Positions 7,079 through 54,680 are shown, counted from the first letter of the stretch. The stretch: DNA of 64,000 nt from Patescibacteria group bacterium (GCA_041665545.1 JBAYIQ010000004.1:18132-82131); one strand, 5' to 3'. Made by a program: numbers and translations. Notes: generated by a model from the letters alone, not told the origin.

Positions 7079-7342
7079 TTAACTAGTTTTAAATAATATT
7101 TCTATTAATTTATTTAATTCTTTTTTCTTATTTTTAGTTCCCGACTGATAACAGCCATTCACCTTGTCAGTAATTAGCAAACGAGTGACCGAGTCCAGTG
7201 AAGCGCGCGCAGCCATCACCACTCGCACCACTTCTTCCACTTCTCTTTTTTCGCCGTACATTTTTTCAATCGCGCGAATCTGACCCTCAATGCGATGAAG
7301 TTGAGAATAGATTTTTTGTGGATGACAGGATTGTTTGCTCAT
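7079..7342 (-). CDS. CsoR/RcnR/FrmR-family (DUF156) metal- or thiol-sensing transcriptional repressor, atypical ligand set
   Basis: QLHRIEGQIRAIEKM...ASL matches the CsoR-family helix alpha1/alpha2. The positions of the canonical Cu ligands (first Cys and His of the C-H-C set) are replaced (REVEEVV ... KVNGC). Only one Cys is retained, plus an N-terminal Cys-His (SCHP). Confidence 0.6.
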   Translation of the reverse strand: MSKQSCHPQKIYSQLHRIEGQIRAIEKMYGEKREVEEVVRVVMAARASLDSVTRLLITDKVNGCYQSGTKNKKKELNKLIEILFKTS

Positions 7343-7351
7343 ATACCCTCT

Positions 7352-7375
7352 GGGGGTATTATATCAAACCAGTAA
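7352..7375. promoter_or_regulatory. Putative CsoR-type operator overlapping the csoR-like start
   Basis: ATATACCCTCTGGGGGTATTATAT is a pseudo-palindrome ATACCC-N5-GGGTAT with a G-tract. It resembles, from memory, described CsoR operators of the TACCC...GGGGTA type. Confidence 0.35.
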
Positions 7376-7713
7376 AAACACGTCAAGTGTGGTGGTGGAA
7401 AATCACTAACCCCTCCAACCTCCCCTTAACAGGGGAGGAACATTTAAGCCCCCCTTGTCTCGCCCACAGGGCGATCACCCTCTGGGTGAAAAGGGGGTTC
7501 CTGCCTGCCGGTAGGCAGGAAGCAATCTACAAGCTTGTGGATTGCCACGCCCCGTCGCGTCAGACGCGACGGGGCTCGCAATGACGAACCGAAAAACTAA
7601 CTTCGGATCAACAAACTTCTCGACTCCCCCTCGACCTGGCTCGGGGTCGCTCGGGATTTCGCGAGACAAACAGGAGGATACTTTTTGTTTGAAGTCATTG
7701 TTAATATTTCAGT

Positions 7714-7780
7714 GTCATTCCTGCGAAGGCAGGAATCTAGCCAGATCCCGCAACAAGTGCGGCAAGTGCGGGATAACAAC
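7714..7780. mobile_element. MITE-like palindromic element, family A, compact copy
   Basis: TGTCATTCCTGCGAAGGCAGGAATCTA ... CAGATCCCGCAACAAGTGCGGCAAGTGCGGGATAACA. Each arm is itself a hairpin. It is homologous to the copy at 9385-9468 (TGTCATTCCCGCGAAAGCGGGAATCTA ... TAGATCCTGGATCAAGTCCGGGATGACA), with terminal inverted repeats TGTCAT/ATGACA. Confidence 0.5.
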
Positions 7781-7864
7781 ATGGTTGGGGGGTTTGTTTT
7801 AAATCCTCCTTGTCAAACGGCCCTGCCCGAGCTTGCTCGAAGAAATAGACCCTTGTGCGATATT

Positions 7865-7893
7865 TGACAATAATCTTAATAGGTGATATAATA
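7865..7893 (+). promoter_or_regulatory. Exact consensus sigma70 promoter (TTGACA-17-TATAAT) for the 7923 gene
   Basis: TTGACAATAATCTTAATAGGTGATATAAT sits about 30 nt upstream of a GGGAGG Shine-Dalgarno and the ATG. Confidence 0.6.
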
Positions 7894-7922
7894 TAGTGTT
7901 TCCATAACCGGGAGGTTCTTTC

Positions 7923-8183
7923 ATGGCAGACCGTAAGGGTCCTTCGGCTGTAAGCTCGGTCTTCATCTGGCTGGCGTATTTGTCGGCAATTGCCGGCGAA
8001 TCCCTTCTTCTCTGCAAGACTTGGTGGGAGTTTGCGGCGCTTGTGGGCATTGGCGTCGCTGTTTTCTTCCTCGTCGCGTTCTTCATTGGCCTATTTAGCA
8101 TCAAGCGCCACGGCGCCGTCCATGTCCTGCTGATAGCAGTACTCGTGCTTTCGGCAATGACTCACCTGGCCATCTTCGCGTGA
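7923..8183 (+). CDS. Small high-GC membrane protein (two predicted TM helices), unknown function
   Basis: An 86 aa ORF with its own consensus promoter, Shine-Dalgarno and terminator. It has two hydrophobic segments (VSSVFIWLAYLSAIAG, VGIGVAVFFLVAFFIGLF...VLLIAVLVLSAM). GC is well above the flanking DNA. Confidence 0.5.
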   Translation: MADRKGPSAVSSVFIWLAYLSAIAGESLLLCKTWWEFAALVGIGVAVFFLVAFFIGLFSIKRHGAVHVLLIAVLVLSAMTHLAIFA

Positions 8184-8211
8184 CAACACATCACCCAGAA
8201 TGGAGAATCGG

Positions 8212-8257
8212 CCCCGTAAGTGTACGCAACGCTACGGGGTCTTAATTTTGTTTAATT
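8212..8257 (+). terminator. Rho-independent terminator of the 7923 gene
   Basis: CCCCGTAAGTGTACGCAACGCTACGGGG hairpin followed by TCTTAATTTTGTTTAATTT. Confidence 0.6.
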
Positions 8258-8274
8258 TATCATGAGTTAGCTAA

Positions 8275-8385
8275 CCCAGTTAGAAATTTACCTTAGTTGG
8301 CATATGAGATAAACTTATATAAGCAACTAAGTGACAATTTTACTAATAATACGGCATAAAATATTCAAAATAATTTCTAACTGGG
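8275..8385. repeat. Inverted-repeat element of the CCCGTTAGAAATT family (copy E1)
   Basis: CCCAGTTAGAAATT at 8275-8288 and its reverse complement AATTTCTAACTGGG at 8372-8385 flank a 83 bp AT-rich interior. The arms match copies E2-E5 at 34666-34745, 46548-46626, 47786-47889 and 47896-48044. Confidence 0.5.
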
Positions 8386-8439
8386 CTAATATTAGCCAAA
8401 AGTATTGCTTCTGTAAAGAAATGGCAGTAAATATAGGGA

Positions 8440-8468
8440 TTGACAAAATTTGATAAAGGGTGTATAAT
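8440..8468 (+). promoter_or_regulatory. Exact consensus sigma70 promoter with extended -10 (TTGACA-17-TGTATAAT) for the 8652 gene
   Basis: TTGACAAAATTTGATAAAGGGTGTATAAT. It is followed by a leader of about 180 nt containing the palindromes TATCTATTATATAGATAG and CTTTACATGGTGTAAAG, then the Shine-Dalgarno AAAAGGAGAG and the ATG. Confidence 0.6.
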
Positions 8469-8651
8469 TTTATGTTACTTTAAGTACCTTAATATTTACT
8501 TGCAAACAGCCATAATAGCCCCAGCGTTTAGATTATCTATTATATAGATAGTTTAACCGCTGCGGCTATTCGATAGTCGCTTCTACTGGTGTGCCTTGTG
8601 TCTTTACATGGTGTAAAGATAAGAGGTGTACCGAAAAAAGGAGAGAAAACC

Positions 8652-9242
8652 ATGGCTCGTCAGAAGAGTGAGTTCGTGAGTGCCCTGGGCACGGCCTTCG
8701 AGATGATCAAGCTGATCGCCGAGGAGGTCTACTTCCTGGGTGGTAACGACAACAACATGCGGACGATCCTCAAGGATCGCAAGCTGCGTCAGCAGATCGC
8801 CAAGTTGTTGGTCGCCAACACCGGTGATGTCTGCGCGTTGGACATCTTCGGCAAGAGCATCGATGAGCTGGTAAGGCAGGGTAACTACGACTGGGCCAAC
8901 AACAGCATCAACGACCACAACTTCAAGGCGGACGAGATGCACCAGACCGAAGTCTTTCTCAAGCACTTCGGCCAGAACATGAGTATGGAGGCCGTGCTCA
9001 ATGCTCTGGATGCCGACGGCCTGCGTCCGGCGACCATGTCCGAGCTGCTCGGGTTCGGCATTCGCTATCCCGAACTGCAGCGGCAGTTCCCCATCGTGGC
9101 CCTCGGCTCTGTCTTGCAGTTTACCGGTGGTGGACGTCGTGCCGGTTGCCTCTACGGCAGTGCTGACGAGCGCAGGCTCGGTCTGAACTGGGTCGACGGT
9201 GACTTGAGCGGTGCCTATCGCGTCGCTGCTGTTCGCAAGTAA
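8652..9242 (+). CDS. High-GC hypothetical cytoplasmic protein (197 aa), unknown function
   Basis: ORF track 8589..9242; the start is set at MARQKSEF, directly after a strong Shine-Dalgarno. There is no TM segment and I recognise no motifs. The clearly elevated GC gives the codon usage of a high-GC organism. Confidence 0.5.
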   Translation: MARQKSEFVSALGTAFEMIKLIAEEVYFLGGNDNNMRTILKDRKLRQQIAKLLVANTGDVCALDIFGKSIDELVRQGNYDWANNSINDHNFKADEMHQTEVFLKHFGQNMSMEAVLNALDADGLRPATMSELLGFGIRYPELQRQFPIVALGSVLQFTGGGRRAGCLYGSADERRLGLNWVDGDLSGAYRVAAVRK

Positions 9243-16330: not shown

Positions 16331-16372
16331 CAGTAAATTGCCCAGATATTTTAAATTTGTTATTATAAGGGC

Positions 16373-16939
16373 ATGATAGCTTATCTGAAGGGTAGTGTAT
16401 TAAAAAAAGACCAAAAAGCCACCATTATAAACGTTAATGGCGTTGGCTATGAGGTTTTTTTGAAAAATAAGGACATTGCCAATCTCCAAATCAACGAATT
16501 TGTGGAGTTTTTCATTCATTCTTATATAAAAGAAGACGCCTTAGACCTATACGGCTTTGTTAATCCAGAAGAATTAGCTTTTTTCAAGCAACTACTTCAG
16601 GTGTCTGGTGTTGGCCCAAGGACGGCCATGAGCGTCATGTCTTTGGCTGAAGTGTTGGATTTGAAGAGGGCCATTACCAGTGGCAATCCCAGCTTCTTAC
16701 AACAAGTCTCTGGTATTGGCAAAAAAACAGCCGAGCGCCTGGTGGTGGAGCTGAAGGAAAAATTTATTGATGAGGTGTCGGCCGACGGTGCTCTTATCAA
16801 CACGGACCAGCAAGTAATATCGGCCCTAGTCTCCTTGGGCTACAAAGAGCGCGAGGTCATGGACATGACCAGGGGCCTGGAACTAGAAGGCGATTTGTCA
16901 GACAAAATAAAACAAGTTTTAAAAAATACCAAAAAATAA
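16373..16939 (+). CDS. ruvA: Holliday junction DNA helicase RuvA
   Basis: MIAYLKGSVLKKDQKATIINVNGVGYEVFL (domain I), followed by the helix-hairpin-helix motifs LLQVSGVGPRTAMSVMS and VSGIGKKTAERLVVEL. Confidence 0.85.
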   Translation: MIAYLKGSVLKKDQKATIINVNGVGYEVFLKNKDIANLQINEFVEFFIHSYIKEDALDLYGFVNPEELAFFKQLLQVSGVGPRTAMSVMSLAEVLDLKRAITSGNPSFLQQVSGIGKKTAERLVVELKEKFIDEVSADGALINTDQQVISALVSLGYKEREVMDMTRGLELEGDLSDKIKQVLKNTKK

Positions 16940-31915: not shown

Positions 31916-31935
31916 CAAATTAGTATAATAGACTC

Positions 31936-33357
31936 ATGTCTGTAATGAGTAAAATATTTACCAATACTATTTGGCAGATAGTAATAAGGTTTTTTGATGT
32001 TATTGTTGGGGTTGTAAACATCGGCATAATTACCCGTGTTTTGGGTCAAACACAATTTGGATTTTATACCACAATTTTTGTGTTCTTGCAGACAGTAATG
32101 ACCATAGGCGATTTTGGCCTGTATTTGACCCTATTGAACGAAGTGTCGGCTACTCAAGACAAAAAAGAGGAGAAAAAAAGGATTGATAATATTTTTACCA
32201 TTCGCTTGGTTTCATCGCTGATAATTTTTGCTCTAGCGCCACTGTTGATAAAATTTTTCCCCTACGATCAAGCAGTAAAGGTCGGGGTTATTTTTTTGGC
32301 CGGCGCATTTTTTTGGCAAAGCTTGGTTTCTACTTTGACAGCGGTGTTTGCCAAATATTTGGACATGGCCAAGGCAACGCTAGTTTATCTGATTGCAAGA
32401 TTGGTTTATTTGTGGCCCCTCATATATATTTATCAACACAGCGGTACCTTAAATCAAGTACTTTTTTGGAATACACTTAGCACCGCCGTTGGTTTTTTTG
32501 CTTTATTGATTTTTATACAAAAGCACCAGCGCTTAGGGATGGGCTGGAATTTTGCCTATTGGAAAAAAGTTTTTAAAATTGCTTGGCCATTGTCTTTGGG
32601 TGTAGTACTTAATCTGGTTTATTTCAAGGCCGACACTCTTATTTTGTCGGCCTATCATTCAGCGGAAAAAGTCGGTCTCTATGGCGCGGCCTACAAAGTA
32701 TTGGAGGTTTTGGTGACCTTCCCACACATGTTTATGGGTTTGATTTTACCCCTTTTTGTAGCCTCTTGGGTGAAAAAAGATTTTGAAAAGTTGAGAGTAA
32801 TTCAACAGAGTACTTTTAACTTTTTTTCTATCATCAATATTTGGATGATTTTGATTGTTTGGTTGATGAGCAGAAAAATAATGTTGTTAATCACTGGACC
32901 AGAGTTTGTCCAGTCAGCGCCGATTCTAAATATTTTGGTTTTGGCTGTGGTGGCCATATTTTTTGGCACCATGTTCACCTACTTAGTCGTGGCCATGGGT
33001 TTGCAGAAAAAAATGCTTAAATTTTATTTTTTGACAGCTGTTTTTGGTCTGACCGCTTATTTTTTATTTATTCCCGAATATGGCTATTGGGCCGCGGCTA
33101 TTATTACGGTGCTAGCCGAAGTTTTTGTTTGGGTAGCCGCTTACTTTTTGGTCAAAAAAAGTGCCAATTTTAGCTTAAAAACAGGAATTATGTGGCGTTC
33201 TGTGCTGGCGGCGATATTAAGTTTTGTTTTGTTTTGGCCACTGCGTGGTTGGCCAGTTATATTTTTGGGACTTGGCGTTTCAGTCTTTTATTTCTTGATG
33301 CTTTTTGTTTTGCGGGCCATCAAAAAAGATGAGCTAAAAATTATATTAAATAAGTAA
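31936..33357 (+). CDS. Polysaccharide-biosynthesis or flippase family membrane protein (Wzx/MurJ-like MOP superfamily)
   Basis: A 473 aa polytopic protein (about 12-14 TM). The N-terminus (IWQIVIRFFDVIVGVVNIGIITRVLGQTQFGFY) and overall pattern are typical of Wzx-type oligosaccharide flippases. Confidence 0.5.
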   Translation: MSVMSKIFTNTIWQIVIRFFDVIVGVVNIGIITRVLGQTQFGFYTTIFVFLQTVMTIGDFGLYLTLLNEVSATQDKKEEKKRIDNIFTIRLVSSLIIFALAPLLIKFFPYDQAVKVGVIFLAGAFFWQSLVSTLTAVFAKYLDMAKATLVYLIARLVYLWPLIYIYQHSGTLNQVLFWNTLSTAVGFFALLIFIQKHQRLGMGWNFAYWKKVFKIAWPLSLGVVLNLVYFKADTLILSAYHSAEKVGLYGAAYKVLEVLVTFPHMFMGLILPLFVASWVKKDFEKLRVIQQSTFNFFSIINIWMILIVWLMSRKIMLLITGPEFVQSAPILNILVLAVVAIFFGTMFTYLVVAMGLQKKMLKFYFLTAVFGLTAYFLFIPEYGYWAAAIITVLAEVFVWVAAYFLVKKSANFSLKTGIMWRSVLAAILSFVLFWPLRGWPVIFLGLGVSVFYFLMLFVLRAIKKDELKIILNK

Positions 33358-34648: not shown

Positions 34649-34665
34649 TATAATATACACATGTA

Positions 34666-34745
34666 CCCCGTTAGAAATTCACGGGGATTAAATAATTGCC
34701 AAGCAAGTAGTATATTAGCTTATTATAATGATGATTTCTAACGGG
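34666..34745. repeat. Inverted-repeat element of the CCCGTTAGAAATT family (copy E2), ending at the galU start
   Basis: CCCCGTTAGAAATT at 34666-34679 is itself a local hairpin (CCCCG-TTAGAAATTCA-CGGGG). Its partner ATTTCTAACGGG at 34734-34745 is followed immediately by GTGAAAAAGAT. The 25-mer ATTTCTAACGGG[G/A]TGAAAAAGAT is nearly identical to the one at 46615-46639. Confidence 0.5.
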
Positions 34746-35612
34746 GTGAAAAAGATTAGGAAGGCAGTAATTCCGGTGGCGGGATTTGGCACTAGATTTT
34801 TACCAGCCACCAAGGCTCAGCCCAAGGAAATGTTGACCGTGGTTGACAAGCCGATCATCCAATATATTGTGGAAGAAGCCGTGCAATCGGGCATTGAAGA
34901 GATAATTTTTGTTACTTCAGCTAATAAACGCGCTATTGAAGATCACTTTGATCGCAATTTCGAGCTAGAATACCGCTTGCGACAAAAAGGGAAAAAAACC
35001 GAGCTGGCCGAGATGCTGAAAATTTCGGACATGGCCAAATTTATTTATGTCCGCCAAAAAACACCAAAGGGCTTGGGGCATGCCGTACTGACTGCTCGAG
35101 AGCTGATCGGCGATGAGCCGTTTGTGGTGATTGCTGGTGATGACATTATTGACTCTAAGGTGCCGGCCATAAAACAACTAATGCGGGTTTATGAAAGGTA
35201 TGAAGATATAGTTTTGGGCGTCACCAAAGTAGATAAAAAAGAAACTTACAAATACGGCATTATTGATCCTATAAAAATTGACGAGCGCACAGTCGAGATA
35301 AGAAGGCTGGTCGAAAAACCCGCTTCCAACAAAGCGCCTTCTAACTTGGCAGTCACTGGTCGCTATATATTGACCCCAGAAATATTTGATTTTTTAGCCA
35401 AACAAAAGCCCGGTGCTGGTGGTGAAATACAATTGACTGACGCCATTGCCCGCTATATCAAAGAACGGGCTGGCTACGCCTGTCTTTATGAGGGAGATTA
35501 TTATGACTGTGGTAACAAACTAGAGTTTATGAAGGCCATTATAAATTTTGGTCTAAAAAGATCGGCCTTTAAGAAAGAGTTAAAAAAATATTTACGTCAA
35601 ATAGTAAATTAA
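34728..35612 (+). CDS. galU: UTP--glucose-1-phosphate uridylyltransferase
   Basis: KAVIPVAGFGTRFLPATKAQPKEMLTVVDKPIIQYIVEEA is the GalU N-terminal signature. An alternative in-frame GTG start at 34746 directly follows the repeat element. Confidence 0.85.
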   Translation: MMISNGVKKIRKAVIPVAGFGTRFLPATKAQPKEMLTVVDKPIIQYIVEEAVQSGIEEIIFVTSANKRAIEDHFDRNFELEYRLRQKGKKTELAEMLKISDMAKFIYVRQKTPKGLGHAVLTARELIGDEPFVVIAGDDIIDSKVPAIKQLMRVYERYEDIVLGVTKVDKKETYKYGIIDPIKIDERTVEIRRLVEKPASNKAPSNLAVTGRYILTPEIFDFLAKQKPGAGGEIQLTDAIARYIKERAGYACLYEGDYYDCGNKLEFMKAIINFGLKRSAFKKELKKYLRQIVN

Positions 35613-37667: not shown

Positions 37668-37785
37668 TTATAAAATTATGCACATTCACTCCGTTAAATA
37701 AAATTTAAACACAGTTTAAATTTTAAATTTGCTACATGACCACATATAAATTATACGCCAATGAAAAATATAAAAAATAAATCTG

Positions 37786-44567: not shown

Positions 44568-45062
44568 ATGACAAAAAAATTTACTATTTTAGGATTTGAT
44601 CCGGGTCTGGCTGATACTGGTTTTGGTGTGATTTGTCGGGAAAACAATAAATTGCAGTATTTGACCTGTGGTAGTATAAAAACCAGAGCTGGGGAAAGTT
44701 TTTCTAGCCGAATATTGGAGATATATCAAGAAGTGAGTGGATTGCTTGGGGAATATAAACCAGATTTGGTGGCTGTAGAAAAGCTTTTTTTTGCCAAAAA
44801 CACTAAGACAGCCATTGATGTCAGTCAGGCCAGAGGAGTGCTGTTGCTAGCCATCGTTGAGCAGAAAAAAACTTTGGTAGAACTGACGCCTTTGCAGGTG
44901 AAGCAGGCAGTGACTGGCTCGGGGCAGGCCAGTAAACGGCAGATTGGTGTCATGGTCAAGACTTTGCTACAGTTATCAGCCGTGCCAAAGTCCGATGATG
45001 CGGCCGATGCTTTGGCCATTGCTATTGCTGGCGCTTCGTTTAATACATTGTTAAGAAAATAA
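44568..45062 (+). CDS. ruvC: Crossover junction endodeoxyribonuclease RuvC
   Basis: ILGFDPGLADTGFGVI (catalytic Asp), and C-terminal DDAADALAIAIAG. Confidence 0.85.
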   Translation: MTKKFTILGFDPGLADTGFGVICRENNKLQYLTCGSIKTRAGESFSSRILEIYQEVSGLLGEYKPDLVAVEKLFFAKNTKTAIDVSQARGVLLLAIVEQKKTLVELTPLQVKQAVTGSGQASKRQIGVMVKTLLQLSAVPKSDDAADALAIAIAGASFNTLLRK

Positions 45063-45076
45063 TTTATCCTATTAGG

Positions 45077-46555
45077 ATGAAAAAATTAAAAATAGTTTCA
45101 ATTTCAGCCGAGGTCCATCCCTATTCCAAGACCGGTGGTTTGGGTGATGTAGCTAGATCACTGCCCAAGGCCTTTCATCGTTTGGGGCACGAGGTTATTA
45201 TTATCACTCCGTTTTATGCTAAGGTCATAGATCAGGGAAAGTTTAAGATTGAAAAAATTTTTAGCGATGTCAAATTAAGTATTGATGCCGAAAATGAAGA
45301 ATCGGTCAGCTACTATCGCACCGAATTATTGTCCGGATTGAAAGTATATCTTATTGGTAATGAAAAATATTTTTCTCGTCACAAAAAATTATATGGTTCG
45401 GAGCACGAAAATGCCCGTTTTTATCTTTTTGACATAGCGGCTCTCAAGTTGATATCGTTGTTAAAATTTAAAGCGGACATTATTCATTGTCACGACTGGC
45501 ACTCAGGACTAGTGCCCTATTTGAAACAAAATCGTTTCAAAAAAAGCGAAACACTGTCTAAGGCGGCCACGGTTTATACTATTCATAATTTAGTATTTCA
45601 GCTGGGGCACAATTGGTGGGAAGTGCCAGAGAAATATAAGGACAAAGGAGTCAAATCTTTGCCACTATTTGATGATAAAAAAATTGAGTATATCAATTTT
45701 GCTAAGCGGGGCATTCTCAATGCCGATGTTATCAACACGGTTTCCGAAACTTACGCCGAAGAAATATTGCGACCAAGTTTTGGACAGGATTTACATCGTA
45801 TTTTGAGGAACAGAAAAGAAAATTTATTTGGCATCGTCAATGGTATTGATTACAAGGATTATAATCCCATCAACGATCCTAATTTGGTGCTGAATTATGA
45901 TCACAAAAAAATTCAACGAAAAAAAGTGAACAAAGAGCACATCCAAAAATTATTTAATCTTAAAGTTGATCAAGATGCGCCAGTGTTGTGCACCACTTCG
46001 CGAGTCACTTACCAGAAGGGTTTTGAATTAATATTGAATACCATCAATAATATCATGGATATGGGTGCTCAGCTGATTGTCATCGGCGCTGGTGATAAAA
46101 GCTACATCAATGAATTCATGAAGCTGGCCAAAAAGTATCCCAAACAATTGGCAGTCATACCCTCACACAAGGAAAACCAAAAATATGAGACTTTAGTTTA
46201 TGCTGGCTCAGATATGTTTTTATTGCCTTCACACCATGAGCCCTGTGGCATCAACCAGCTTATTAGTTTTCGTTATGGTTGCGTACCCATTGTCAGGCAA
46301 ACTGGTGGCTTGAATGACACGGTAGAAAATTTTGAACCAAACAATGAAGCCAGTAATGGTTTTACTTTCAAAAATTACGATCAAAAAGAATTTTTGATTG
46401 CCTTGACTAGGGCCTTGGAAACCTACAAACATAAGAAGGTCTGGCGCGACTTGGCTTGTCGTGGCATGAAGGCCTCCTATTCCTGGGAAATACCAGCCAA
46501 AGAATATTTAGAACTTTATCAGCACGCCATTAAGATAAAAAATGATTCCCGTTAG
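45077..46555 (+). CDS. glgA: Glycogen/starch synthase (GT5), paralog 1
   Basis: KIVSISAEVHPYSKTGGLGDVARSLPKAFHRLGHEVIIITPFY is the GlgA N-terminal ADP-glucose-binding signature, with the C-terminal GT-B domain. Confidence 0.8.
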   Translation: MKKLKIVSISAEVHPYSKTGGLGDVARSLPKAFHRLGHEVIIITPFYAKVIDQGKFKIEKIFSDVKLSIDAENEESVSYYRTELLSGLKVYLIGNEKYFSRHKKLYGSEHENARFYLFDIAALKLISLLKFKADIIHCHDWHSGLVPYLKQNRFKKSETLSKAATVYTIHNLVFQLGHNWWEVPEKYKDKGVKSLPLFDDKKIEYINFAKRGILNADVINTVSETYAEEILRPSFGQDLHRILRNRKENLFGIVNGIDYKDYNPINDPNLVLNYDHKKIQRKKVNKEHIQKLFNLKVDQDAPVLCTTSRVTYQKGFELILNTINNIMDMGAQLIVIGAGDKSYINEFMKLAKKYPKQLAVIPSHKENQKYETLVYAGSDMFLLPSHHEPCGINQLISFRYGCVPIVRQTGGLNDTVENFEPNNEASNGFTFKNYDQKEFLIALTRALETYKHKKVWRDLACRGMKASYSWEIPAKEYLELYQHAIKIKNDSR

Positions 46556-46626
46556 AAATTTTCGATATCTAGCGGGTAGATAGGCATATTTTTTAATGAA
46601 TAAATTTTACGATAATTTCTAACGGG
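46548..46626. repeat. Inverted-repeat element of the CCCGTTAGAAATT family (copy E3), ending at the ATG of the GH57-like gene
   Basis: CCCGTTAGAAATT at 46548-46560 overlaps the last codons and stop of glgA. Its partner AATTTCTAACGGG at 46614-46626 is followed directly by the ATG at 46627. Confidence 0.5.
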
Positions 46627-47778
46627 ATGAAAAAGATAACTTGGGTTAATTTTTTACACATCTACCAGCCACCATGGCAGACAGTCGGAGTGGTACAGCA
46701 GATAGCTAGTCAGAGCTACGAGTACTTGGTTTATCTTTTTAAAAAATATTCAAAATATCGAGCCACTATAAATATTAGTGGGTGTTTGCTGGACATGCTT
46801 TTCGAAATTCGACCAGACTTGGTCAAAGAATTGCAAAAATTGGTGAGTAATAAACAAATTGAATTAACAGCCACAGCTAAATTTCATCCGCTTTTGCCAC
46901 TGCTTGAGCAAGAAGAAGTAATTAGGCAAATACAATTGAACGCCGAGACCTTAAAAAAGTTTTTTCCCAATTTGAAGCCAAGTGGTTTTTATTTGCCGGA
47001 AATGGCTTACAGCTTAGGGGTGGCAAAGATTATTAAACAATTAGGTTATAAATGGATAATATTAGACCCAATATGCGCTAATGAAAAAATTGATAATAAT
47101 ACACATTACAGTATTAAAAATATTGGGTTGACAGTTGTTTTTCGCGATAGAATAATATCAAAAAAATATCCAGCTGAAGAAATTTATAATAAACTAGAGA
47201 AACTAACAGCCAATGAAACAATAATTACAGCTACTGATGGTGAAATATACGGTCATCACCATGAAGATTGGCAAGGACATATTGAAAAAGTGATTTCTCA
47301 TAAAGATTTGGAAAGCAAAACAGTGTCTCAATATATACTTGGGTTAGTCAAGAAAAAAACCATTGCCTTGCGCTCCGGAACTTGGGAGTCGACCTTACAG
47401 GAGATAAAAGCTGATAAGCCATTTGTCATGTGGGCGGATCCGCATAATAAAATTCAGCAAGATTTGTGGGCCTTAGTTAATTTGGCCAGTAAATTGCTAA
47501 AAAAATACAAAAAAGATCCAAATTTTCAATGGGCCAGAATGCACCTTGATCAGGGTTTGATTTCTTGTACTTTTTGGTGGGCTTCGGCTCGTAAACCATC
47601 AGACTTTTCACCGCTGACTTGGCATCCGGACATGATTGACAATGGCGTGGAAGAGTTGGTGCGTAGTGTGCGCTCTTTACAACGAGCAACAACTAAAGAA
47701 AAAATGCAGGCCGAGAAGTTATATCTAGAAGTTAAAAAAAATACCTGGATGACTCATTGGAAAAAATATAGCAAATAA
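46627..47778 (+). CDS. Glycoside hydrolase family 57-like alpha-glucan-active enzyme
   Basis: N-terminal FLHIYQPPWQ (GH57 H-x-HQP region), TATAKFHPLLPLL (region II-like), and EMAYS. The size is 383 aa. Confidence 0.5.
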   Translation: MKKITWVNFLHIYQPPWQTVGVVQQIASQSYEYLVYLFKKYSKYRATINISGCLLDMLFEIRPDLVKELQKLVSNKQIELTATAKFHPLLPLLEQEEVIRQIQLNAETLKKFFPNLKPSGFYLPEMAYSLGVAKIIKQLGYKWIILDPICANEKIDNNTHYSIKNIGLTVVFRDRIISKKYPAEEIYNKLEKLTANETIITATDGEIYGHHHEDWQGHIEKVISHKDLESKTVSQYILGLVKKKTIALRSGTWESTLQEIKADKPFVMWADPHNKIQQDLWALVNLASKLLKKYKKDPNFQWARMHLDQGLISCTFWWASARKPSDFSPLTWHPDMIDNGVEELVRSVRSLQRATTKEKMQAEKLYLEVKKNTWMTHWKKYSK

Positions 47779-47785
47779 TATTTAT

Positions 47786-47889
47786 CCCGTTGCAAATTCA
47801 CTACACAATGTAACGGGCAAAAATAGGAATTAGAAATAATTGTTTTACCTTTATTTTTTTAAACATTTTATCAAATAATTTGCAACGGG
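47786..47889. repeat. Inverted-repeat element of the CCCGTTAGAAATT family (copy E4), with compensatory G/C variants
   Basis: CCCGTTGCAAATT at 47786-47798 pairs with AATTTGCAACGGG at 47877-47889, both carrying the same two-base variant. An internal hairpin CCCGTT-20 nt-AACGGG is present. An ATG follows at 47890, opening a 21-codon ORF. Confidence 0.5.
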
Positions 47890-47895
47890 ATGGAT

Positions 47896-48044
47896 CCAGT
47901 TAGAAATTCACGATATTTAGCCATTGTGGTAAGGTGTAGTGGTATAAGATAAATTTACATTACCACATAAGAGACAAGCTAATGCTTAGAAACAATTATT
48001 TTACTTTAATTTTTTAAATATTTTATTAGATAATTTGTAACTGG
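47896..48044. repeat. Inverted-repeat element of the CCCGTTAGAAATT family (copy E5), ending at the ATG of the kinase-like gene
   Basis: CCAGTTAGAAATT at 47896-47908 pairs with AATTTGTAACTGG at 48032-48044, with a compensatory CCAG/CTGG change. It is followed directly by the ATG at 48045. Confidence 0.5.
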
Positions 48045-49106
48045 ATGGAAATCACAAGCATCAAACGATACATGGACAAATTGCTGAACTTGGATTTTAT
48101 TACTACTTTGTTTAATCAAGGTCTTAATAAATTTTATCCAGATTTCAAGCAAGTGGATGGTCTGGTTTTTCACCCCTACAAGCGCCATGTTGGCAAAACC
48201 AGCATGATAATGGTGGTGGAATATGTCTTGAGTTATTTAACAATTGATGAAAAAATAAAAACAATCAGTCTATTTTCTTCAGCGCACTCGGACGGCTCTA
48301 GAACTAGGTCTTTTTATGGTCAAAGTTATTTATATGATCACGGTTTTGGTCAAGGCAATTTCTTAGTTGGTCGACCCCTGTTTTATCTTGATGAGCAGTT
48401 TGCCTTTTTTTATGAAGCAGTGCTGGGTCGTACTTTTCGTAAAGTTATGCAGGAAAAACCAAATGAAGATTTTTCCGTTATTTTGGATTTGGCAGCTAAG
48501 TGGATAAAAAAAATGCACGATTGTCCCATTGATAAAGAAAATAAATTTGTCTCTTTTGATTTCAGTGAAATGTCGCCCAAGCCACAAAGATTTTTGGATG
48601 ATATGACCAAAGTTTATCCAGAATTAGGTCAGCGTCTGGACAGCACCTTTCATCGTTTAGCTGATTTGAAGAAAAAAAATTTCAATACCTTTCCGGTGTC
48701 GATTATACACGGCGATTATCATCCAGAAAATATTATTGTAAAGAGCGCGGAGCCAGATAAAATAAAAGTTATTGACTTTACTGATTTATCTTTGGGTGAT
48801 CCTATGGTGGACTTGGGGTCATTCATCCAGCAGATAGATTTTATGGGCTTTGAGTGTTTGAGTAGAGGTAATATAAATAAGTATAAAACTATTTTTTTGG
48901 AATATTATTTTAATAAAAAATTTGAGGACATTGATATTAACGATTTAAACAGAATAAATTTGTATCAAGCTTGGGTAGTTTTGCGCACTACTTTGTTGCT
49001 TTTTTATGCTAAGTCAGCCAGTCACCCGCTTGGCGAGTTGATTGAAGAGATAGATCGCTACTTGAGCTTGGCGGAGGGCAGTCAAAGAAAAATAAACTTG
49101 TATTAA
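48045..49106 (+). CDS. Protein-kinase-like (APH/maltokinase-type) phosphotransferase
   Basis: Catalytic loop IIHGDYHPENIIV (HGDxHxxN) and activation motif VIDFTDLSLGDPMVDLG (DFxxxxxGDPxxDL), as in aminoglycoside phosphotransferase and maltokinase-fold enzymes. Confidence 0.5.
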   Translation: MEITSIKRYMDKLLNLDFITTLFNQGLNKFYPDFKQVDGLVFHPYKRHVGKTSMIMVVEYVLSYLTIDEKIKTISLFSSAHSDGSRTRSFYGQSYLYDHGFGQGNFLVGRPLFYLDEQFAFFYEAVLGRTFRKVMQEKPNEDFSVILDLAAKWIKKMHDCPIDKENKFVSFDFSEMSPKPQRFLDDMTKVYPELGQRLDSTFHRLADLKKKNFNTFPVSIIHGDYHPENIIVKSAEPDKIKVIDFTDLSLGDPMVDLGSFIQQIDFMGFECLSRGNINKYKTIFLEYYFNKKFEDIDINDLNRINLYQAWVVLRTTLLLFYAKSASHPLGELIEEIDRYLSLAEGSQRKINLY

Positions 49107-50624: not shown

Positions 50625-51113
50625 ATGGATCAAAATTTGATTGTTGTAAATGAAAATAACGAAGTTGTTAAAATAGTTGATTCAGTTGAAGTACATCATA
50701 GCAATTTATTACATCGCTCAGTACACGTTATTGTTGTTGGCAAAGGAGAAAAATTTTTTTGTCGGCAAATTAGTTCCACCAGTTCCCTTTATGCAAATTA
50801 TTGGTCAACGGCCACAGGTGCTCATATATTGGCTAATCATGAGCCACTTGAGACAGCGCAGTATTCTTTAAAAGATTTATTGGGCATATCTATGGATTTA
50901 GAATTTATTGGAGATGTACGCATTAACGATGGTGTTGAAAATGAAATAAGTTCAACATACGTGGGTTATTACGATGGGATATTTAATTTAAATAAGAGTA
51001 AGTTGACCGACGGCAAATTTTTTACCGATGAAGAATTAAGTATTCTTTTTGAGTCAGAAAAAGTTACACCACACTTAGTTAAATCAATTGAATTATATAG
51101 AAAAATTAAATAA
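50625..51113 (+). CDS. NUDIX-fold protein (IPP-isomerase-like), Nudix box degenerate
   Basis: LHRSVHVIVVGKGEKFFCRQIS...YANYWSTATGAHILANHEPLETAQYSLKDLLGI matches the Nudix-fold topology. The catalytic REx2EE positions are not conserved. Confidence 0.4.
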   Translation: MDQNLIVVNENNEVVKIVDSVEVHHSNLLHRSVHVIVVGKGEKFFCRQISSTSSLYANYWSTATGAHILANHEPLETAQYSLKDLLGISMDLEFIGDVRINDGVENEISSTYVGYYDGIFNLNKSKLTDGKFFTDEELSILFESEKVTPHLVKSIELYRKIK

Positions 51114-52221: not shown

Positions 52222-52650
52222 TTATTGGTTAATATTTTGAGCAATAAATTGATAAAGCGCCATTGCAGCGTATTCTGCATAGGTATTGTTGGTGCAACTG
52301 AAGCGATAGTAATCATCGATTGATCGTATAATATTATCGGGAGCAGTAGACCCTATTCTTTTGGTCCGCTCTAAAATATAATTAAGCTTTTCAATGATTT
52401 TTTCTATAGTCGTGCCAGAGTCTTTTTCTTTTTGTAATTCAGCAGTAACTTCTTGAATAATGTTTAGATATTTTTGGTAAATTGGTTTTAAATGTTTTTC
52501 TATTAGCAAGTCTTTTTCACTCGCCTGAATCCACCCGATATCTAGAGCATAAGTAAGGCATTCTTCGTAATATGTATTTTCATCCAGGATTTTTCCCCTG
52601 TCTTCATTTTGTATTTCTGGCCATTGTCCTGGTAATCTTGTTTTTTCCAT
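52222..52650 (-). CDS. Hypothetical cytoplasmic protein (142 aa)
   Basis: The ORF is preceded by a 104 bp sequence identical to the one upstream of the 52745..53308 gene. I recognise no motifs. Confidence 0.4.
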   Translation of the reverse strand: MEKTRLPGQWPEIQNEDRGKILDENTYYEECLTYALDIGWIQASEKDLLIEKHLKPIYQKYLNIIQEVTAELQKEKDSGTTIEKIIEKLNYILERTKRIGSTAPDNIIRSIDDYYRFSCTNNTYAEYAAMALYQFIAQNINQ

Positions 52651-52745
52651 ATTTTATTATTTCACTTTTCCAAATTTCCTTTTTCCAGCTTGCACCACAT
52701 CGCCGGATTTGATGATGATATCTTTGTCCCAAGCTGATATTTTTT
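52642..52745. repeat. 104 bp perfect direct repeat, copy 1 (contains a duplicated fragment of the tyrS 3' end)
   Basis: Identical to 53300-53403. It comprises the last ~29 codons of tyrS (...SGDVVQAGKRKFGKVK*), plus the intergenic ATAAAAT and a start codon. Confidence 0.8.
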
Positions 52746-53308
52746 TATATTACCATTGCTATCCCCATAGCCATTAGAGTATTCCACCATATATATAAAT
52801 AAGCAAATCCTATTTCAGGATGCAATTCCTTATATTCTAAAAAATCATTAATAGTACTTGTATAGATGGGGTTCTGTAGAGGGGTTGTGTTATATTCAGC
52901 TAGTAGCCACACAAAAGCAATTACCCCAGCCAATAAAGATAAAAATATTATACTGTTTTTTGAAATTTTGGTTATAGATCCTAAGCCAATAAGCATAATC
53001 AATCCACCCACAAAACCAGCTACTAGGAAAGAAAAAGGTGGTTTTATAATAGCTTCAGCTATGACCACCCAAAAAGATGCATGATAAGCAATAGCGCAAC
53101 AGGCGAGCCATATTAAGGTATTCTCAGGATTCTTTTTTTCTTTTTTAATAATAAATATGGCCGGAAATATAAAAATCCCAAAAATTAATCCTGGCAATAG
53201 AGATAAGGCATAAAAGTTATGGGTAACATCAAAGAGCAGAATATAGTTAACTACTAGTGCGGACATAAGGCCAAACAGTGGCAAAATAATAAATTTTAAT
53301 TTTTCCAT
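52745..53308 (-). CDS. Hypothetical polytopic membrane protein (187 aa, about 6 TM)
   Basis: The gene is flanked by the two copies of the 104 bp direct repeat. It has a hydrophobic profile throughout. Confidence 0.45.
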   Translation of the reverse strand: MEKLKFIILPLFGLMSALVVNYILLFDVTHNFYALSLLPGLIFGIFIFPAIFIIKKEKKNPENTLIWLACCAIAYHASFWVVIAEAIIKPPFSFLVAGFVGGLIMLIGLGSITKISKNSIIFLSLLAGVIAFVWLLAEYNTTPLQNPIYTSTINDFLEYKELHPEIGFAYLYIWWNTLMAMGIAMVI

Positions 53309-54523: not shown

Positions 54524-54680
54524 AGTTTCGATTTTTCTTAATTTCAGCCCGTGGAATAATCCCGCCTAAGCGGGATTAGTGCCACGTTATGATTATTAAT
54601 TATATTTTATTTTACATTACTATAAAACCCAAATTTAGCAAAATAGTGTTCAGTGGCACTATTCCACGGGCTAAAGTATA

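Follow-up and report, generated by a model that had tools for sequence, protein, structure and literature searches.

Why should copies of one short inverted repeat end exactly at the start codons of several unrelated genes? The question is raised by a 64,000-nucleotide stretch of DNA from a Patescibacteria group bacterium (GCA_041665545.1, JBAYIQ010000004.1:18132-82131; hereafter the window), in which such repeats enclose AT-rich sequence upstream of galU, of a glycoside hydrolase gene (GH57) and of a kinase-like gene of the APH family. An original prediction made from the sequence had offered two readings of these repeats, a cis-regulatory RNA stem that sequesters the start codons of a carbohydrate regulon, or a transposable element of the miniature inverted-repeat kind (MITE) that carries its own start codon. 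Our analyses favor the second in a modified form: with a probability of roughly 80%, the repeats bound, as terminal inverted repeats, a family of MITE-like mobile elements that are short (about 45-340 bp), non-coding and unusual in their targeting. Several features expected of MITEs are present, namely short non-coding units, terminal inverted repeats, a duplication of fixed length, and occupied and empty versions of the same sites.

The window contains five paired copies of a 12-13 nt inverted repeat with the consensus CCCGTTAGAAAT(T) ... (A)ATTTCTAACGGG, four of them (E2-E5) where the original prediction had placed them and a fifth, E1, added here. With at most one mismatch the arm ATTTCTAACGGG has 7 matches in the window against 0.43 expected, a number reached by none of 100 shuffles, and with at most two mismatches it has 11 against 6.7 expected, a weak excess. 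From arm to arm the copies extend over 8276-8384 (E1), 34667-34745 (E2), 46548-46626 (E3), 47786-47889 (E4) and 47896-48044 (E5), and with their terminal bases they and two associated features are as follows.

8275..8385, no strand assigned: E1, C-CCAGTTAGAAATT...AATTTCTAACTGG-G, 111 nt, with a perfect duplication CTAA (8271-8274, 8386-8389) and no start codon
34649..34663, plus strand: ancestral galU promoter-like TATAAT (34649-34654), 6 nt, then a relic ATG (34661-34663), upstream of E2; its promoter role is putative
34666..34746, plus strand: E2, 81 nt, upstream of galU, flanked by TGTA (34662-34665) and TGAA (34747-34750)
46547..46627, plus strand: E3, 81 nt, between glgA (45077-46555) and the GH57 gene (46627-47778), with ATGA duplicated (46542-46545, 46627-46630)
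47785..47890, plus strand: E4, 106 nt, an older copy 3' of the GH57 stop, with TGGA (47891-47894) serving both as its right flank and as the left flank of E5
47890..47952, plus strand: relic start of the kinase-like gene, an ATG (47890-47892) opening a 20-codon open reading frame (ORF) that runs into E5 (MDPVRNSRYL...)
47895..48045, plus strand: E5, 151 nt, at the start codon of the kinase-like APH-family gene (48045-49106), with a perfect duplication TGGA (47891-47894, 48046-48049)

The copies are thus 81-151 nt long and AT-rich, with interiors of 23-30% G+C that contain no ORF of their own, and the interior of E5 is related to that of E4. Their arms, of 13-18 nt, are 94% complementary in E1 and E3 and carry a single G/G mismatch in E5, and the variants co-vary as had been described: E4 has GCAA with TTGC, and both E1 and E5 have CCAG with CTGG. 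A GTG or ATG follows the 3' arm directly in E2, E3, E4 and E5, while E1 precedes no gene, so that the predicted adjacency to a start codon applies to four of the five. At galU the GTG start is made up of the last base of E2 (G, 34746) and a following TG, and two further in-frame ATGs lie within the element, at 34728 and 34731. The glgA gene is now terminated by a TAG within the 5' arm of E3. When the flanks are read in the register that holds for the family as a whole (see below), they are, left and right, CTAA/CTAA for E1, TGTA/TGAA for E2, TTTA/TGGA for E4 and TGGA/TGGA for E5, and the flanks of E3 can be read as ATGA/ATGA or, in the family register, as TGAT/TGAA.

Further copies were noticed in passing. 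At 45055-45076 a decayed copy, TTTATCCTATTAGG-ATG, precedes glgA (TTTTCTAAGGGG-ATG in the related locus L001, at 4524), and at 37688-37705 another, CTCCGTTAAATAAAAT, lies 3' of a pilin gene (CACCCCGTTAAATAAAAT in L130). An intact extra copy stands before a pilin gene in L131 (5938-6063), and the window is without it.

The evidence that these units have moved came from relatives, i.e., seven related loci (L001-L007) retrieved using the GH57 protein, and relatives of galU compared in an alignment (A1) of seven loci. The E3 site is empty in L001-L004, L006 and L007, which read AAAAATGAAAAAG (also AAGATAAAAAATGAAAAAGAT) where the window has ATGA-[81 nt]-ATGA. In these relatives glgA runs directly into the GH57 start, ...AAGATAAAAAATGAAAAAGATAA, versus AAAAATGA-TTCCCGTTAG...CTAACGGG-ATGAAAAAG in the window, and BLAST alignments with L001-L004 lacked window positions 46546-46626, with 4 nt (ATGA) aligning on both sides of the gap. 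L005 has a different insert of about 40 nt at this site, with the end ACAGG-ATG. E5 is absent from L001, L002 and L003, which have an E4-like copy only (in L001, E4 is followed by ATGAAGATC), and ATGGA stands on both sides of E5 in the window. E4 itself is common to the window and L001, has a lost or decayed 5' arm in L002, L003 and L005, and is absent from L004 (AAATAATATGGAAATC), L006 and L007, which have no element between the GH57 gene and the kinase-like gene. With L132, whose GalU is 84% identical and which is empty at the E2 site (TATAATATAGACATGTTAAAAATC), empty sites were found for four copies, E2, E3, E4 and E5.

The empty sites also changed the reading of several details. The ATG after E4, with what had been counted as a 21-codon ORF, had been suggested to mark a decayed copy; it is instead the left copy of the kinase-like gene's old start, cut off from its gene when E5 was inserted there. 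Likewise, the TGAAAAAGAT shared by the sequences after E2 and E3 had been noted as an extension of the identity into the first codons; it is not part of the element, since the empty GH57 site already reads ATGAAAAAGATAA and galU relatives begin MKKIRK, so the identity is that of a duplicated target followed by Lys-rich first codons. The notion of a MITE that brings its own start codon held in part: the ATG is already present in the empty sites, and what the element contributes is the first base (A or G) of the new start, the duplicated target providing the TG.

The galU site offered a view of what happens after insertion. Two relatives with GalU 95% identical carry E2 with its arms kept, and in three others, at 90, 88 and 84%, an insert of the same size is present with decayed arms; an uncompensated change in the 5' arm is already found in L130. 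The three older copies no longer have a start codon at the original position; an in-frame internal ATG (ATAATG) is conserved instead, an ATG that appears to have been adopted later as the galU start. The TATAAT upstream of galU is invariant in all seven orthologous loci, the empty site included. The same history accounts for an inconsistency in public GalU entries (P0001-P0012), which start at differing codons and are 288, 293 or 294 aa long, the calls of 293-294 aa beginning MMISNG or MIISKE, because the presence of the element and the extent of its decay differ between them. Judged from these sequences, the galU site seems to have undergone a selfish insertion, then its decay and piecemeal adoption, rather than to have kept up an RNA stem.

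That distinction bears directly on the first of the two original readings, in which the arms pair in the mRNA, hide the start codon and coordinate the translation of carbohydrate genes. It was not an unreasonable proposal, given that the arms are complementary with co-varying variants, that the predicted hairpins of young copies are more stable than shuffles (z -2.8 to -5.0), that the conserved TATAAT upstream of galU would place both arms in the transcript, and that structure at the start could matter in a genome nearly without Shine-Dalgarno motifs. The lack of such a motif had been pointed out for these leaders, and it proved to be genome-wide, a weak motif at most being found in 6 of 51 window genes. 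Against the proposal, relatives whose GH57 proteins are 91% identical differ in the presence of the element, orthologous E2 copies lose their arms without compensation (A1), and E1 precedes no gene at all. The carbohydrate genes form a class only loosely, with E5 preceding an APH-family kinase-like gene, and elsewhere in the family the genes that follow the element include, besides GH57 and galU, a type II/IV secretion ATPase, a Mur ligase and dehydratases, with no single class among them. The same arms are also found around unrelated interiors, around tRNA genes, in in-frame insertions and in another phylum. Searches of Rfam returned no match for the element: at the gathering threshold the whole window gave only a tRNA (tRNA-Arg), and in E-value mode the regions 7300-9000 and 46400-48200 gave chance-level matches only. 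We therefore consider a regulatory RNA of a carbohydrate regulon highly unlikely, and predicted hairpins may affect the expression of young copies as a side effect of insertion. Riboregulators such as RNA thermometers and riboswitch expression platforms likewise have a stem ending at the start codon, but the present elements differ from them in not being conserved at orthologous loci, in having no ligand-binding or thermometer motif and no Rfam match, and in the decay of their arms. An intrinsic terminator was also considered and rejected, as the lone terminator-like site in 46300-48300 is within the GH57 gene with none in the elements, and local hairpins beside the 5' arm have no T run after them.

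How far the family extends was addressed by a paired-arm pattern scan of metagenome contigs, which produced at least 120 loci, a few of them chance matches by rough calculation; the counts that follow come from the loci listed. Across these the termini are identical and the interiors unrelated, some being AT-rich as in the window and others belonging to an abundant 93-nt form with two G+C-rich hairpins. Element size ranges from about 45 to 340 nt, units of 45-50 nt occur in tandem (L035, L064), copies are nested at L040, and the tandem E4 and E5 of the window have one TGGA in common. A relaxed arm search showed the termini to be conserved across 175 copies, most of which had first been found by a pattern demanding near-exact arms. 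Together with the differences in presence between close relatives and the target duplications, the more than 100 loci with unrelated interiors support the view that these are MITEs.

When the element is delimited as N+CCCG...CGGG+N', a perfect 4-bp duplication flanks 85 of 136 listed copies. Other registers (offsets of 0 or 2; lengths of 2, 3, 5 or 6) were tried and gave 0-2 perfect duplications, barring those overlapping the chosen register. The ends are thus [C/T]CCCG...CGGG[G/A], with N and N' being C and G in 102 of the listed copies and T and A in 27. Most of the duplicated 4-mers are TAAA, TGAA or TCAA or the complement of one of these, and TTAA is rare; once oriented, the targets give the consensus R-T-R-A-A, with no matching signal on the other side. 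Flanks also vary by subfamily, TAAA versus TGAA. Orientation relative to this asymmetric target is fixed in the 93-nt subfamily, with all 34 oriented copies the same way round, and among the AT-rich copies a third arm-like segment, which forms a local hairpin beside the gene-distal arm, is found on one and the same side in 24 of the 29 cases that were oriented.

An asymmetric target and a fixed orientation are also what would be expected of a site-specific recombination cassette, attC-like or akin to Xer and other tyrosine-recombinase systems, whose joined ends (a 13-nt arm, a 4-6 nt asymmetric spacer and a 13-nt arm) would be the core site and would integrate in one orientation at sites sharing the spacer. 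Each subfamily having its own flank (TAAA or TGAA) would suit such a cassette, the joined ends would from their sequence be like loxP or dif in layout, and an integrase-like ORF is present in the element-rich locus L129. The empty sites, however, have no arm-like binding sites, and the perfect duplication of many different 4-mers fits a staggered cut better than a fixed core. Moreover, no integrase is adjacent to the copies in the window. The integron attC site in particular was rejected, as the order of the present motifs, GTTAGAA...TTCTAAC (i.e., GTT...AAC), is the reverse of 5'-RYYYAAC ... GTTRRRY-3'. A recombination cassette is accordingly given very little probability. Close to negligible in probability is a paired operator, in which each arm would be a half-site for a dimeric regulator with looping of the DNA between them: a conserved motif in two inverted copies near promoters would be in keeping with it, but the spacing varies from about 20 to more than 300 bp, some copies are inside ORFs or surround tRNA genes, insertion is evident from the target duplications and the empty sites, and a fixed protein specificity would not favor covariation between the arms.

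Covariation between arms is real throughout the family, matched variants (AC with GT, GAAAG with CTTTC, AGAGTT with AACTCT, GACAT with ATGTC, and GAAAC with GTTTC) being found in many independent copies, and the sets of copies were chosen by arm complementarity, so a covariation statistic from them would be biased. The original prediction had seen in covariation the signature of base pairing. The covariation stands, but since orthologous copies decay we read it as a property of the family during its spread and not of an mRNA structure conserved by selection at any single locus. It would follow if each spreading sub-lineage needed two ends that fit one enzyme, or that pair with each other in a DNA intermediate, and recombination between arms may also homogenize them.

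For the MITE-like family we can also suggest why arms and codons adjoin so exactly. The last base of the element is always a purine (A or G), and as it joins the TG of a duplicated TGAA or TGGA, an (A/G)TG directly follows the 3' arm, which leaves the downstream gene with a start codon. By a hand tally of flags, about 45 of 138 listed copies adjoin, on one side or the other, the first codon of an ORF that has 60 codons or more. Flanks read by eye show A before almost every TGAA duplication, and otherwise a few G and one T, i.e., a relic start codon, and the stop of the upstream ORF is often supplied by the left duplicate (TGA or TAA) or by the TAG within CCCGT-TAG. A T-R-A-A target after a purine resembles a stop codon plus A (TAA-A, TGA-A) or a start/stop overlap (A-TGA-A), and when the element and one duplicate were removed, a read-through ORF resulted in only 10 of 125 healed junctions. 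In the mechanism we propose, the element would insert into the few bases where genes meet, as at ATGA-type junctions, and leave both genes intact, with the left target copy, or the TAG of CCCGT-TAG, giving the upstream gene its stop. Arm and start codon would adjoin exactly because such insertions are the ones tolerated in a genome with almost no intergenic DNA. Movement would be by cut-and-paste, as in piggyBac or IS1380, with the 4-nt flank travelling with the element, a hypothesis under which both the subfamily-specific duplication and the fixed orientation would be explained. In the window the gene-proximal half of the element is AT-rich and a GATAAT, AATAAT or TATAAT overlaps the inner edge of the 3' arm, a -10-like box from which we infer that insertion would provide a new upstream region for leaderless or near-leaderless expression.

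Not all copies lie between genes. Some are within ORFs, as listed here.

L098, 1943-2035: in-ORF copy
L062, 444-536: in-ORF copy
L022, 2353-2445: in-ORF copy
L025, 769-837: in-ORF copy
L047, 10130-10198: in-ORF copy
L109, L114 and L118: in-ORF copies

Their hosts include NuoG/FdhA-like proteins, an FtsX permease, an ATPase and other long ORFs. Counted with the duplication, in-ORF copies are 75, 99, 102 or 114 nt long, all multiples of 3, and open in the frame PVRN...ISNG; in the 93-nt subfamily, 26 of 38 copies come to a multiple of 3 when the duplication is included. Other elements have a complete tRNA gene (Ala, Pro or Val) as their interior, at L020, L026, L074/L079, L110 and L125, and these tRNA-enclosing elements sit in the anticodon loops of other tRNA genes.

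L110, 3540-3990: tRNA-enclosing element
L079, 7534-7640: tRNA-enclosing element
L125, 1805-1906: tRNA-enclosing element
L020, 628-735: tRNA-enclosing element
L026, 359-462: tRNA-enclosing element
L074: tRNA-enclosing element

The most elaborate case is L110, in which an element with tRNA-Ala inside it breaks into a tRNA-Gly(UCC) after nucleotide 37, and in which five tandem tRNA 5' halves are each followed by a 5' arm and two 3' halves each preceded by a 3' arm. At L079/L074 and L125 an element with tRNA-Pro interrupts the anticodon arm of what is apparently another tRNA gene, its outer body clear and its acceptor stem of the Pro type. Interruption by tRNA-Pro is less clear at L020 and at a second site in L110, and the spliced form of L020 was never accepted as a tRNA. 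Trial splicing with ARAGORN was uninformative, as nearly any junction was accepted. The arrangements could be split or nested genes, or could be the debris of recombination between copies, and a role at the RNA level is conceivable.

Such copies invite the idea of an intervening sequence, the arms forming a processing helix by which the element and one copy of its flank are removed from mRNAs and tRNAs. The arms in anticodon loops, with the interruption and the halves at L110, would agree with it, as would the restoration of long ORFs in L098, L062 and L022 when the element and one duplicate are removed. Yet the in-ORF copies need no splicing, being multiples of 3 with an open, translatable frame, and read-through ORFs at healed junctions are rare (10 of 125). 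The window is bacterial, as its DnaA, FtsK, PBP and UvrB attest, and the junctions at tRNA genes are predicted to form either a continuous helix that has a 1x2 internal loop or a fold in which the internal loop is 6x5. A bulge-helix-bulge intron (two 3-nt bulges with a 4-bp helix between) was sought in these predicted junction folds and was absent. Copies beside tRNA genes, moreover, have no matching flanks, and some tRNA halves have no partner. Processing of the RNA as the general explanation is for these reasons very improbable.

The termini are not confined to one phylum. The 93-nt subfamily is found in Thermodesulfobacteriota-like contigs, where its neighbors encode PAS/GAF histidine kinases and acyl-CoA dehydrogenases; at L058 (L073, L097 and others also carry the subfamily) a neighboring protein is 87% identical to a Thermodesulfobacteriota acyl-CoA dehydrogenase. 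By this sequence evidence the termini are common to at least two phyla, Patescibacteria and one that is Thermodesulfobacteriota-like. A paired-arm scan of viral contigs gave two matches, in contigs of 48-55% G+C with unrelated interiors, which were judged unrelated, and the 93-nt consensus had no BLAST match in plasmids. A search of the full-text literature for the arm sequence gave primer coincidences only, and a literature search for MITEs or tRNA introns in Patescibacteria turned up group I intron work only and nothing on these elements.

Several observations weigh against a mobile family as we describe it. No transposase gene bounded by the termini of the element was found in about 0.97 Mb of retrieved DNA. 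It is surprising that selfish DNA should have identical 12-nt termini in two phyla, and a strict orientation to an asymmetric target of 4-5 nt is not expected of a symmetric DDE transposase. There are recurrent copies with unlike flanks (TTCA...CAAG), many of them around tRNA genes, a class that we attribute to probable recombination between arms, and the duplication of the young E3 is one base off the family register (TGAT/TGAA, or a perfect ATGA plus an extra T). As for expression, a sigma-70 scan of 46300-48300 gave no excess of promoters and nothing significant in the elements, and the promoter or leaderless role suggested above is a putative one, read from the sequence by inspection.

The source of the movement was pursued in several ways. 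Arm pairs 300-5000 bp apart with matching flanks were considered as a potential autonomous element and were all explained by neighboring small copies, and a list of orphan arms likewise resulted in none. Recurrent ORF clusters in the loci were housekeeping genes, with no HUH-type transposase among the clusters checked in a screen that was not exhaustive. With the ISEcp1 transposase as query, phmmer gave no match to any ORF of 100 aa or more from the retrieved loci and the window, and there was no transposase in the 6 kb beyond the window's left end.

The kind of element is a known one, and several precedents are instructive. Correia elements of Neisseria (CREE or nemis) are about 100-150 bp with inverted repeats, have many copies, lie upstream of genes, and in some cases carry outward promoters (PMC10969869). 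In their transcripts the inverted repeats form hairpins that are cut by RNase III in Neisseria, and their occupancy of sites varies between strains (PMC10969869). The present elements are like them in size, terminal repeats, target duplication, copy number, position just upstream of genes and variable occupancy of sites. Correia elements duplicate TA, however, rather than 4 bp (T-R-A-A), and the present elements differ further in inserting exactly at start and stop codons, with a terminal base that rebuilds the start and a fixed orientation, in having interiors unrelated between subfamilies and termini in two phyla, and in that no partner transposase was found.

Rickettsia palindromic elements (RPE) are of about 100-150 bp and lie in frame within protein genes, with which they are translated (PMC10969869). 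The in-ORF copies, with their frame PVRN...ISNG, are RPE-like; the present copies are mostly at gene boundaries, however, with a clear 4-bp duplication and a defined target, and they occur outside Rickettsia, in Patescibacteria and a Thermodesulfobacteriota-like genome. The present elements also recall REPINs and REP sequences, as two inverted short repeats that make a long hairpin, are intergenic and abundant, and have arms kept complementary. REPINs are not known to make a target duplication, have a conserved GTAG beside the hairpin and depend on a RAYT transposase gene for their mobilization; in the present elements there is a 4-bp duplication and no GTAG was seen.

A further resemblance is to piggyBac, the inverted repeats of which begin with CCC (PMC10813416). 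The present elements share with piggyBac and its bacterial relatives, the IS1380 family, a 4-bp duplication, T-N-N-A in outline like TTAA, and CCC-type termini. The piggyBac repeat CCCTAGAAAG and CCCGTTAGAAAT have CCC..TAGAAA in common, and members of IS1380 have CC ends, duplications of 4-5 bp and outward promoters that drive downstream genes; the ends of ISEcp1, of the IS1380 family, are CCTAGATTCTACGT and ACGTGGAATTTAGG. Unlike piggyBac, the present target is not TTAA and is asymmetric, there is one extra base before the CCC, and insertion is oriented. The resemblance is a lead to the possible machinery and not an assignment to either family.

As far as we could find, earlier work does not describe such targeting of start/stop junctions, in which the start codon is rebuilt, nor the fixed orientation, the carriage of tRNA genes as cargo or the occurrence in more than one phylum. 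A more daring proposal would bring these together as an undescribed class of small mobile elements, present across phyla, whose machinery reads the asymmetric 5-nt R-T-R-A-A at stop/start junctions and inserts in one orientation. The element would take its 4-nt flank along, would restore start and stop codons and in this way persist where a genome has no intergenic space, and could carry tRNA-gene cargo into the anticodon loops of other tRNA genes; in its boldest form the arms, as an RNA helix, would let the interrupted or split tRNA genes of L110, L079 and L125 yield working bacterial tRNAs. We regard this proposal as speculative and rather unlikely.

Under the preferred reading of a MITE-like family there are consequences for annotation, since a GTG for an ATG beside an arm, and N-terminal additions such as MMISNG, would be by-products of insertion in Patescibacteria and related metagenome genomes. 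The family would also exemplify how selfish DNA persists in a compact genome, by targeting the bases at which genes join and rebuilding the codons it interrupts, and it may bring new upstream sequence and break a former translational coupling, e.g., that of glgA with the GH57 gene. Oriented insertion and subfamily-specific flanks point to a mode of target selection that, so far as our searches went, is new for bacterial MITEs, and the enzyme, if found, could be a compact sequence-directed integrase or transposase. That Patescibacteria and a Thermodesulfobacteriota-like genome have these termini in common may be a trace of genes passing between an episymbiont lineage and other bacteria of the sediment.

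The window also encodes DnaN, RpoB/C and type IV secretion pilins in addition to the DnaA, FtsK, class A PBP and UvrB already mentioned. Its GalU is annotated as Patescibacteria in public records, with nearest named relatives in the Komeilibacteria, and by these protein sequences the host is a Komeilibacteria-like member of the Patescibacteria. In several genes a TATAAT lies 6-9 nt before the ATG (e.g., 31922-31938, 16360-16375 and 34649-34663), which suggests that leaderless mRNAs may be widespread in the host.

Four other observations in the window concern different features. At 54544-54673, between divergent genes, is an inverted-repeat element of another kind, GCCCGTGGAATA...TATTCCACGGGC, whose inner hairpin is CCCGCCTAAGCGGG; it is in the window and L002 and exactly absent from L001 (CTTAATT|AAGTATA), has no clear target duplication, and had no other copy in the retrieved DNA. 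At 8400-8620, in the 1.3-kb non-coding stretch where E1 also lies, there is a near-consensus promoter (TTGACA, 17 nt, TATAAT, at about 8441-8469); the next 150 nt or so, with no convincing ORF and chance-level Rfam matches only, may be an unannotated small RNA. At 50625-51113 the window has a 162-aa ORF with no Pfam match, where L001 (9800-10100) has a short ORF with a GIY-YIG-like motif (KLYIGFTNNLKLRFEQHKKG) and L002 (5906-5955) has almost nothing, an instance of gene content varying between close relatives. Finally, the adjacent minus-strand genes at 52222-52650 and 52745-53308 are identical in their upstream sequence and in their first codons (aggaaatttggaaaagtgaaataataaaat-ATGGAAAAA), a sign of a probable recent tandem duplication.

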